The notes beneath the pieces were generated by a model. That model was not told the origin of the DNA, did no database searches, and worked only from the letters and a program-made list of their open reading frames with translations. From IMG/VR virus record IMGVR_UViG_2534682078_000012: 7,970 nucleotides of DNA, one strand, 5' to 3'. This DNA is from a virus (Duplodnaviria; Heunggongvirae; Uroviricota; Caudoviricetes). Both the position numbers and the translations under genes were made by a program. Positions within the stretch are counted from its first letter, which is position 1. Each line of letters opens with the position of its first letter. Below, piece after piece: positions 5,486-7,970 of the stretch.

Positions 5486-7172
5486 ACCGCGATGTGATGA
5501 GCCGTCAGAAATGACCGAGGCTGAACAACGTCTGTTCATCATGACTAAACTGAGCAATCCCTGGTGGCGGCTCAATCATCTCTACAAAATACAGAACGAA
5601 AAAGGTGAACTGGTCACCTTCAGAATGCGACCGGCGCAGCGCCAGTTGTTCCGGAGCATGCACAATAAAAATATTATCCTGAAAGCGCGCCAGCTGGGAT
5701 TTTCCACAGCCATTGATATTTATCTTCTCGACCAGGCATTATTCATTCCGCATCTCAAATGCGGGATCGTCGCTCAGGATAAACAGGCTGCCAGTGAAAT
5801 TTTCCGCACAAAAATTGCTGTACCGTTTGATCATCTCCCTGACTGGCTGAGAGCCTCATTCACCATCGTTGAACGTCGTAGCGGTGCCAGCGGTGGCTAT
5901 ATCCTGTTTGGTCACGGCTCGAGTATCCAGGTGGCAACCTCATTCCGTTCAGGTACGGTGCAGCGCCTGCATATCTCAGAGCACGGCAAAATTTGCGCGA
6001 AATATCCGGCTAAGGCGAAAGAACTGCGAACCGGTACGCTTAATGCCGTCTCTGATGAATGCATTATTTTTGATGAGTCCACTGCTGAAGGCGTGGGTGG
6101 TGATTTTTACGAGATGAGTAACCGAGCACAGGAGATCACTGCATCAGGCTTATTGCTGACGGCACAGGATTATAAATTCCATTTTTACGCCTGGTGGCAG
6201 GATCCTAAATACAGCGCCAGAGTGCCGGAAAGCGGGCTGAAGCTGTCACGGGAAAAAATGACGTATTTTTCTGCGGTTGAGAAGGCAATGAACATCACGC
6301 TTACTGATGAACAGAAGCAGTGGTACATCAATAAGGAAACTGAACAGCGTGAGGAAATGAAGCAGGAGTTTCCCTCAACGCCACAGGAGGCGTTTCTGAC
6401 GTCCGGACGACGTGTGTTCAGTGCCGAAAGTACGTTGCAGGCAGAATCATTCTGTTCGCCACCGATGATTGTTTATGACATTGAACCTGTTACAGGAGCG
6501 AAGACTAAAGCTCAGTCTCTGCGTGAAGGAAATAAAAACGAGTTGCAGCGGACGCTGATGAATTATCTGCTGGTATGGGAACTGCCGGATCCGGATGAAG
6601 AGTATGTTTGTGGGGCAGATACTGCCGAAGGGCTGGAGCACGGAGACCGCTCATCGCTGGATGTTGTCAAACGCAGTAATGGCGAGCAGGTGGCTCACTG
6701 GTTCGGGCATCTCGATGCTGAACTTTTTGCTCATCTCATTTCGCAGGTCTGTCGTATGTATAACAACGCGTTTGTGGGGCCGGAGCGTAATAATCACGGA
6801 CATGCAGTTATCCTGAAACTCCGGGAACTCTATCCGACACGTTATATCTACAACGAACAGCATCTTGACCAGGCATATGACGACGATACGCCCCGCCTTG
6901 GCTGGCTGACAACCCGTCAGAGCAAACCTGTTCTGACCGAAGGAATGAAAACGCTTCTGAATAATGGAATATCAGGGATCCGCTGGTCAGGCACATTATC
7001 GGAAATGAACACCTACGTTTATGACGCGAAAGGCTCCATGAATGCACAGGAAGGCTGCTTTGATGATCAGCTCATGAGCTACATGATTGCCCAGGAGATG
7101 CGCGCCAGAATGCCGGTGAGGGTAAAACAGAAAACGGATAAACGCAGAACCACACACTGGATGGCACACTGA
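5466..7172 (+). CDS. Terminase large subunit (ATPase plus RNase-H-like nuclease)
   Basis: 568 aa; Walker A-like KARQLGFST, Walker B-like ECIIFDEST, and a C-terminal nuclease-type acidic motif VCGADTAEG...GD; GGGGAG Shine-Dalgarno before ATG 5466; follows the small-subunit gene with overlap. Confidence 0.9.
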   Translation: MTFRKNEPRCDEPSEMTEAEQRLFIMTKLSNPWWRLNHLYKIQNEKGELVTFRMRPAQRQLFRSMHNKNIILKARQLGFSTAIDIYLLDQALFIPHLKCGIVAQDKQAASEIFRTKIAVPFDHLPDWLRASFTIVERRSGASGGYILFGHGSSIQVATSFRSGTVQRLHISEHGKICAKYPAKAKELRTGTLNAVSDECIIFDESTAEGVGGDFYEMSNRAQEITASGLLLTAQDYKFHFYAWWQDPKYSARVPESGLKLSREKMTYFSAVEKAMNITLTDEQKQWYINKETEQREEMKQEFPSTPQEAFLTSGRRVFSAESTLQAESFCSPPMIVYDIEPVTGAKTKAQSLREGNKNELQRTLMNYLLVWELPDPDEEYVCGADTAEGLEHGDRSSLDVVKRSNGEQVAHWFGHLDAELFAHLISQVCRMYNNAFVGPERNNHGHAVILKLRELYPTRYIYNEQHLDQAYDDDTPRLGWLTTRQSKPVLTEGMKTLLNNGISGIRWSGTLSEMNTYVYDAKGSMNAQEGCFDDQLMSYMIAQEMRARMPVRVKQKTDKRRTTHWMAH

Positions 7173-7420
7173 TGAAAAATGAAATTAACACCACAGCGAT
7201 GAAAAACGATCATGGATCCACGCCGCGTTTTTCTCAGCGTCAGTTACTGTCTCTCTGTTCTGATATTGACAGTCAGCCTCTCTGGCGTGATGCCGCAAAC
7301 AAGGCCTGTGCGTATTATGATGGCGACCAGCTGGCACCGGAAGTTATCCAGGTACTGAAAGATCGCGGTCAGCCCATGACTGAACCGCCCCGGGTTTCCT
7401 GGAGAGTGTTTTATCTGTGA
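7172..7420 (+). pseudogene. Probable portal protein gene, truncated after ~69 codons by IS insertion
   Basis: ATG 7172 overlaps the terminase stop (TGATG); the position right after the large terminase is typical for a portal gene. From 7381 the reading frame runs into IS terminal sequence and stops at 7418-7420 (tail EPPRVSWRVFYL is IS-encoded). Portal identity is by position and N-terminal character only. Confidence 0.55.
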
Positions 7421-7970
7421 ACTCAGGCTGCCAGATCATCGTTTCCGATGGAAGCATAATAAGCTTTTTCTGCTTCTGCCGGAGGAGTATGGCCCAGCCT
7501 TCCCAGCAATCGTCGATTGTTATACCAGTCCACCCACGTTAGTGTGGCCAGTTCCACTTCTGCACGGTTTTTCCAGCTCTTACGGTGTATTACCTCCGCT
7601 TTGTAAAGACCATTGATGCTCTCAGCCATCGCGTTGTCATACGAGTCGCCTGTACTCCCTGTTGATGCCAGTAATCCGGCTTCTTTTAGTCGCTCCGTAT
7701 AGGCCAGTGACACATACTGAGAGCCTTTATCGCTGTGATGGATGGTGCCAGACGGACGACGGGCCCACAACGCCTGCTCCAGCGCATCCAGCACGAATGT
7801 CGTTTCCATAGACGATGAGACCCGCCACCCCACGATGTATCCGGCAAACACATCAATGATAAACGCCACATAGACGAAGCCCTGCCATGTGCTGACGTAA
7901 GTAAAATCAGCCACCCACAGCTGGTCAGGTCGTTCTGCCACGAACTGACGGTTTACGCGGTCGCCTGCGG
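7381..7970 (-). mobile_element. IS3-family insertion sequence (IS629-like), right end with terminal inverted repeat; partial, continues beyond window
   Basis: Terminus TGAACCGCCCCGGG... begins at 7381 (IS3-group ends start with TGA), followed by a minus-strand transposase OrfB; the insertion interrupts the portal frame. My recollection of IS629 matches this end and the OrfB sequence, but it is not verified by search. Confidence 0.8.
7423..7970 (-). CDS. IS3-family transposase OrfB (DDE/rve integrase catalytic domain), C-terminal ~182 codons; N-terminus beyond window end
   Basis: Catalytic-core motifs [11 protein letters not shown] ... [11 protein letters not shown] ... [18 protein letters not shown] (D, D, E with downstream K/R) typical of IS3-family OrfB; the frame stays open to base 7970 upstream of the GTG at 7941 that the track used as start. 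Confidence 0.9.

Follow-up and report, generated by a model that had tools for sequence, protein, structure and literature searches.

Our analysis indicates that, in Escherichia coli 2534-86, a short-tailed prophage of the 933W-like (Sepvirinae/Traversvirus-type) kind carries a copy of IS629/IS1203 (1,310 bp) that has transposed in antisense orientation into its portal gene, a reading to which we assign a probability of about 0.85. The DNA analyzed, hereafter the window, is the whole of the 7,970-bp contig AFDS01000074.1 from assembly GCA_000225065.2. It starts inside nanS-p, runs through the lysis and terminase genes into the beginning of the portal gene, and ends inside the insertion sequence (IS). 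The features at the right-hand end of the window are as follows:

7172..7380, plus strand: 5' fragment of a P22-type portal gene (209/209 nt identity; Pfam P22_portal, 29 bits)
7172..7420, plus strand: fusion ORF of 82 aa, comprising 70 portal and 12 IS-encoded residues (ORF list)
7381..7970, minus strand: right-hand 590 nt of IS629/IS1203 (IS3 family), antisense to the late operon (identity to an IS1203 copy)
7381..7407, no strand: terminal inverted repeat of the orfB-proximal end (IRR), starting TGAACCGCCCCGG (alignment with both reference IS ends)
7423..7970, minus strand: C-terminal part of transposase OrfB (DDE/rve core), stop codon at 7423-7425, frame open to the window end (Pfam)

The interrupted gene encodes a P22-type portal protein

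Window positions 7172-7380 are identical, at 209 of 209 nt, to the beginning of the 2,145-nt (714-codon) portal gene of phage vB_EcoP_phi296 (Sepvirinae, Traversvirus) and of the prophage in strain 90-3040. The broader interval 6900-7380 matches many Stx-converting phages at 100% identity, with 192 phage records covering at least 80% of it, and in these relatives the annotation passes from large terminase to portal protein at the corresponding position. The portal start lies directly after terL, as it does in the relatives, with the portal ATG overlapping the terL stop codon (TGATG at 7170-7174); the gene order in the relatives is terS, terL, portal, a 335-aa protein and an N4-gp56-type capsid gene. 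The N-terminal fragment matches Pfam P22_portal (PF16510) at 29 bits, against a gathering cut-off of 26.1. The interrupted gene thus belongs to the same family as the phage P22 gp1-type portals, but whereas the intact 714-aa homolog spans the whole profile (positions 7-594, E = 5.9e-127, 425 bits), the window product keeps only positions 7-50, about 44 of 594. The portal identity, the intact 714-aa homolog and the Pfam match refute the alternative of a short native gene at 7172.

In a four-way alignment, the window tracks the intact portal gene through base 7380 and the IS1203 terminus from 7381, which places the insertion point at portal nt 209/210. Of the 714 codons present in intact relatives, 69 remain in full, followed by 2 nt of the next. 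With the first IS base added, codon 70 reads ACT, so that Thr is retained (a synonymous change), and 12 IS-encoded residues (EPPRVSWRVFYL) follow before a TGA at 7418-7420. The resulting 82-aa product is deposited in GenBank as hypothetical protein EC253486_5444 (EGW63078.1). A first-pass annotation, made from the sequence alone, had proposed that a probable portal gene is truncated after about 69 codons by an IS3-family, IS629-like element ending at 7381; comparison with the intact portal genes of relatives, which are identical over 7172-7380, bears this out, with the cut after codon 69/70 and the IS terminus exactly at 7381. An essential morphogenesis gene is in this way broken at codon 70, as in a defective prophage.

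The inserted element is IS629/IS1203

IS629/IS1203 is the dominant insertion sequence in O157 and related Shiga toxin-producing E. coli (STEC). Such elements measure about 1.3 kb and have overlapping orfA and orfB frames linked by a programmed -1 frameshift; the window includes the last 590 nt. The sequence from 7381 onward (TGAACCGCCCCGGGTTTCCTGGAGAG...) shows no mismatches over 590 nt to a complete 1,310-bp IS1203 copy in NZ_CP027347 (E. coli 2013C-4361), which is flanked by a 3-bp AGC duplication and carries the RefSeq label "IS3-like element IS1203 family transposase" with an annotated programmed frameshift. The IS terminus, TGAACCGCC, falls exactly at 7381, where the element starts as TGAACCGCCCCGGG. 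The two ends of the reference IS have 23 of 27 terminal positions in common, and the one end that lies within the window has the inverted-repeat form 5'-TG...CA-3' (TGAACCGCCCCGGGTTTCC from 7381). A minus-strand ORF at 7423-7941 matches the DDE transposase domains rve (E = 2e-28) and rve_3 (E = 8e-12), as well as rve_2. The end at 7381 is the orfB-proximal one, so the transposase gene runs on the minus strand, opposite to the phage late genes. The identity of 590/590 nt and the rve match both support the assignment to IS629/IS1203. Scanning the window against Rfam gave no match.

The upstream late genes are intact

The first-pass annotation had also held that the lysis, spanin and terminase genes upstream of the insertion look intact. 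This is confirmed by comparison with the closest complete relative, the Stx2a prophage of strain 90-3040, in which stx2a lies 0.5 kb upstream of nanS-p. Stx-converting phages carry stxAB between Q and nanS-p, a position outside the window. The window and the 90-3040 prophage are 99.8% identical over 7,380 nt. Their differences, 16 substitutions and two intergenic indels of one base each, all fall before position 1523, in the C-terminal part of nanS-p, in the DUF826 gene or between genes; from 1523 to 7380 the two sequences are base-for-base identical. More generally, this late region is 99.7 to 99.8% identical over 7,380 nt to those of Stx2a prophages and phages. The terL gene and portal start (1,915 nt) are 100% identical to many Stx prophages and to phi296, which is virion-derived and was deposited as a complete phage genome. 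The lengths of the upstream ORFs equal those in the RefSeq annotation of the 90-3040 prophage, and Pfam matches were obtained in addition. The upstream genes, all intact, are:

1728-1943, plus strand: holin
1948-2481, plus strand: endolysin
2755-3324, plus strand: ant
3481-3945, plus strand: Rz
3701-3886, plus strand: Rz1, embedded in Rz
3977-4270, minus strand: bor
4679-5485, plus strand: small terminase (terS)
5466..7172, plus strand: large terminase (terL), 568 aa, stop codon overlapping the portal start; annotated length matches

The far side of the insertion

The window stops within the IS and so does not include its second end, the target duplication or the portal remainder. IS629 makes target duplications of 3 to 4 bp, has no clear sequence target and prefers prophages, which hold 62% of its sites (PMC3271280). 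The duplication predicted for the other end can be written as one further feature:

7378..7380, no strand: GAC, the predicted target duplication if 3 bp long (TGAC, 7377-7380, if 4 bp)

A simple insertion would give a right-hand junction of the form ...GGGGCGGTTCA + GAC or TGAC + CATCCATAACCTC..., or, written alternatively, ...CCAGGATTTCCGGGGCGGTTCA-(T)GAC-CATCCATAACCTCATTGCC..., with the remaining portal sequence, the 335-aa gene and the N4-gp56-type capsid gene after it. On reconstruction, the two duplication lengths differ in their outcome: a 3-bp duplication (GAC) would leave the portal remainder without a start codon until M85, and a 4-bp duplication (TGAC) would restore an ATG in the portal frame where the IS ends, and with it a 646-aa ORF.

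We looked for these products and junctions in public data. Exact-pattern scans for the right-hand junction gave 0 matches in genome, viral and metagenome contig collections, among which the source assembly is not included. Exact look-up of the predicted products showed that 646-aa forms starting at M69 do exist, but each inspected contig traced to an event other than this insertion: IS629 at one of three other sites (nt 74, 131 and 155), a nonsense codon, a frameshift or the edge of a contig. By the same look-up, 630-aa forms (M85) and the contig-edge read-through forms of 670/671 aa were absent, and 591-aa forms (M124) occur in contigs. Forms of 619 aa (M96) were considered as the portal remainder of 2534-86 and rejected, as they belong to alleles with single-base frameshifts. 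The search with the full-length portal returned 714-aa cluster representatives only, a set in which truncated forms would not show up.

The most economical reading would be a simple insertion with a 3- to 4-bp duplication and the remaining 645 codons beyond the IS; neither the look-ups for the remainder nor the right-junction scans gave a match for this lineage. The main alternative is an IS-mediated deletion or rearrangement, in which the IS marks a breakpoint, the portal remainder and possibly the head and tail genes are deleted or lie elsewhere, and the prophage is a remnant. The contig stopping within the IS and the missing remainder products and junctions are what such an event would leave, and a recognizable 3- to 4-bp duplication was reported at only 21 of 47 IS629 sites in four published O157 genomes, so that over half are without a clean duplication (PMC3271280). 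On the strength of that last figure a far-end deletion or rearrangement is quite possible, though on balance we doubt it: failure to find the remainder is weak evidence, given that PGAP would probably call the remainder a pseudogene and create no protein record, that the protein variant and start codon used in the look-ups were guesses, and that the DNA collections scanned lack this assembly. With a simple insertion and with a deletion alike, the prediction is that the prophage cannot produce virions.

The junction in related assemblies

The identical junction, with the same 82-aa product, is found in contigs of GCA_002458785.1 and GCA_002461485.1; over 5.7 kb, one of these shows one base difference from the window. 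The short-read contigs of these sister assemblies pass unbroken across the junction and end 77 and 75 nt into the IS; a contig end just inside a repeat is the usual repeat-boundary signature of short-read assembly. They argue against a chimera and, less directly, against a second, intact, sequence-identical portal allele in those genomes.

This bears on the idea that the insertion is silent for virions, either because a 4-bp duplication yields a working 646-aa portal without residues 1-68 or because the portal is supplied from another prophage. IS629 duplications can indeed be 3 or 4 bp long (PMC3271280), a TGAC duplication creates ATG-ACC-ATC in the portal frame (...TTCA + TGAC giving ATG ACC, by reconstruction), and several related prophages are frequent in STEC-type genomes. 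However, the IS end supplies no ribosome-binding site, the 68 missing residues include the first ~38 conserved positions of the P22_portal profile (7-44), the duplication at the only reference copy examined is 3 bp long, and no fork appears where the short-read contigs cross the junction, evidence against a second identical allele. We regard a silent insertion as very unlikely.

An assembly chimera, in which the assembler misjoined portal fragment and IS although the actual genome carries an uninterrupted gene, can be dismissed almost entirely: IS629 is a multicopy repeat of the kind at which contigs commonly break or misjoin, and the window is a draft contig from 2011, but the join falls exactly on the first base of the IS terminal repeat and recurs in two independently made assemblies. 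As it is present in these two further independent assemblies, the junction is real and no assembly artefact.

Searches of 5,426 complete E. coli genomes and 50,697 phage records found no sequence spanning the junction. Exact-pattern scans for the left-hand junction in the genome, viral and metagenome contig collections, which do not include the source assembly, likewise gave 0 matches. With three contigs carrying it in a very large collection, the junction is a rare marker specific to this lineage.

Other IS629 insertions and decayed portal alleles

Variation among Stx2a prophages is reported to stem mainly from the copy number and position of IS629, and published insertions lie in roi, a lysozyme gene and a DNA methyltransferase gene (PMC4587872). 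The O157:H7 Stx2a prophage insertions described by Yin et al. 2015 (PMC4587872) and Rump et al. 2011 (PMC3271280) involve the same IS and the same phage group; in contrast to these, the target here is portal nt 209/210 and the host is reported to be a porcine enterotoxigenic E. coli (ETEC) rather than O157. Our search of the literature on IS629 and portal genes returned no description of an insertion at this site or in the portal gene, and the accessions of the two sister assemblies were found in no paper.

Two complete genomes carry the identical IS in the same antisense orientation less than 2 kb from the present site. In NZ_CP027347 (2013C-4361) the IS1203 copy, with its AGC duplication, sits at the very start of terL, which is annotated 15 codons shorter (553 aa), and in NZ_CP066759 (O157:H7 ECP19-198) it lies inside terS. 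These prophages have other insertion points than the window, and both retain an uninterrupted 714-aa portal gene. Apparent full-length matches to the window in complete genomes were rejected, as they reflect such IS1203 copies elsewhere (start of terL; terS).

In public assemblies, IS629 has also inserted independently next to portal nt 74, 131 (~20 contigs) and 155, in each case antisense as here. The same portal gene carries a nonsense mutation at codon 24 (CAG to TAG) in other public assemblies, and single-base frameshifts occur in homopolymer runs at portal nt ~57-61, ~227 and ~260, some of which may be sequencing errors. These inactivated alleles differ from the window in site and lineage. 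They fit a recurrent decay of the portal gene in resident prophages. Having been found via long ORFs that restart at M69 or M96, they are a sample biased toward early disruptions, and because this mode of detection selects such disruptions no hot-spot claim is justified. We consider it very unlikely that the first ~210 nt of the portal gene are a recurrent, orientation-biased IS629 target (four insertions, all antisense) giving rise to locked-in prophages that selection could favor. If this were true, such prophages would keep late expression and lysis without being able to spread, and in hosts with the IS-excision enhancer precise excision of IS629 could reactivate them.

The host strain

The first-pass annotation had taken the IS629-like element, together with nanS-p in the lysis region, to suggest an EHEC or Shigella-like host. 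The record does not support this guess: strain 2534-86, linked to the AFDS01 assembly (AFDS01000066), is described as a porcine LT+/STb+ K88 ETEC (PMC4358887). Nor is IS629-like sequence diagnostic of EHEC or Shigella, since it has matches in most complete E. coli genomes (~4,100 of 5,426). The close relatives of this late region in complete genomes are all STEC.

Predicted consequences for the prophage

The portal dodecamer of P22 (gp1) and its relatives forms the unique vertex for terminase-driven DNA packaging and for tail attachment; without a portal, procapsids remain unfilled and no infectious particle is made. The only translatable N-terminal portal product in the window is the 82-aa stump. 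With the IS629/IS1203 insertion in the portal gene, no dodecameric portal ring could form, procapsids would neither package DNA nor attach tails, and no infectious particles would be released. The loss of virion production is thus predicted from the known essential role of portals. Our literature search found no data on phage or particle production by strain 2534-86. A co-resident related prophage could supply a portal in trans.

Located 5' of the insertion in the Q-dependent late transcript and matching the genes of functional phages base for base, the holin, endolysin, spanin and terminase genes would stay expressible once the prophage is induced, as would nanS-p and anything else upstream in that transcript. 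Cell lysis on induction should be preserved, leaving a locked-in prophage able to kill its host. Any genes present 3' of the IS would probably still be transcribed by antiterminated polymerase, which would be irrelevant to particle formation. The first-pass proposal that virion assembly would be lost while late expression is retained is a sound inference from portal biology.

The insertion is a new instance of a very familiar process of prophage decay and not a new kind of event, as IS629 insertions are well documented and only this site was found in no paper and in no complete genome. It adds one more example of IS629 degrading Stx-type prophages and opens no new question. For annotation, "hypothetical protein" EC253486_5444 should be corrected to a portal stump fused to an IS end. 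For the biology of these strains, a predicted particle-defective prophage in 2534-86 and in the two related assemblies matters for work on induction and transduction.

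Recurrent disruption of the packaging genes

The portal gene begun at 7172 has been struck by IS629 on more than one occasion. Comparison of window 7172-7460 with stretches of other assemblies (L008:1-200, L015:1-60, and L016:1-60) identified three further independent IS629 insertions, none of them beyond nt 160 of this gene and all in the antisense orientation seen in the window:

Portal nt 74, antisense: IS629 left end
Portal nt 131, antisense: IS629 left end, in an O157-type DNA variant (about 20 contigs)
Portal nt 155, antisense: IS629 left end

The method by which these three sites were found, look-ups of shortened portal ORFs, favoured early disruptions, and the cluster at the 5' end is therefore no evidence of a hot spot. 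The same gene is also inactivated without an IS in other records (L017:2700-2950, L014:2790-3050, L024:2717-3010, and L026:294-602), through the following changes:

Portal codon 24: nonsense mutation, CAG to TAG
Portal T5 run: 1-nt deletion, in E. coli 4.0522
Portal C5 run, nt ~227: 1-nt deletion, in 14 similar contigs, one of them 5,384,880 bp in length
Portal A run, nt ~260: 1-nt insertion

Part of these non-IS inactivations may be homopolymer sequencing errors.

Two complete STEC genomes, one of them E. coli 2013C-4361, carry this IS1203 element, likewise antisense, at other sites of the packaging module (L001:6007-7316 and L002:4005-5313):

Very start of terL: IS1203 copy with an AGC duplication
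Within terS: IS1203 copy, splitting terS into two annotated pseudogene pieces

With copies at the start of terL and within terS in these two genomes, the packaging genes of these prophages have therefore been struck repeatedly. The start of terL itself is placed at 5511 (553 aa) in the original GenBank annotation of the contig and at 5466 (568 aa, with a 20-nt overlap with terS) in the RefSeq annotation of identical sequence elsewhere, which is a mere start-codon discrepancy.

Host strain and possible mosaicism upstream of the packaging module

Stx2a phages of O157, O104:H4, and Shigella sonnei match the late region of the window (1-7970, the whole contig) at 99.7 to 99.8% identity, and among complete genomes the near relatives of this region are all STEC. 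By contrast, the published description of the source strain, 2534-86, is of a K88 ETEC from pigs (PMC4358887). Because the contig begins inside nanS-p, stx carriage by the ETEC prophage lies outside its view.

All 18 differences between the window and its closest complete relative, the Stx2a prophage of strain 90-3040, are located before position 1523, and the DUF826 gene (1408-1522) contains a cluster of seven of them, all substitutions. At 1081 and at 1113, both intergenic between nanS-p and the DUF1378 gene, the window lacks a single base that strain 90-3040 has; these two deletions could be real, or else homopolymer miscalls in what is an early draft assembly. A sister contig (L005) shares the IS junction of the window, but upstream of ~1522 its sequence is quite different (288 mismatches). 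These sequence comparisons suggest that the nanS-p/DUF826 region has undergone mosaic recombination around a packaging module that the contigs share and that the IS marks.
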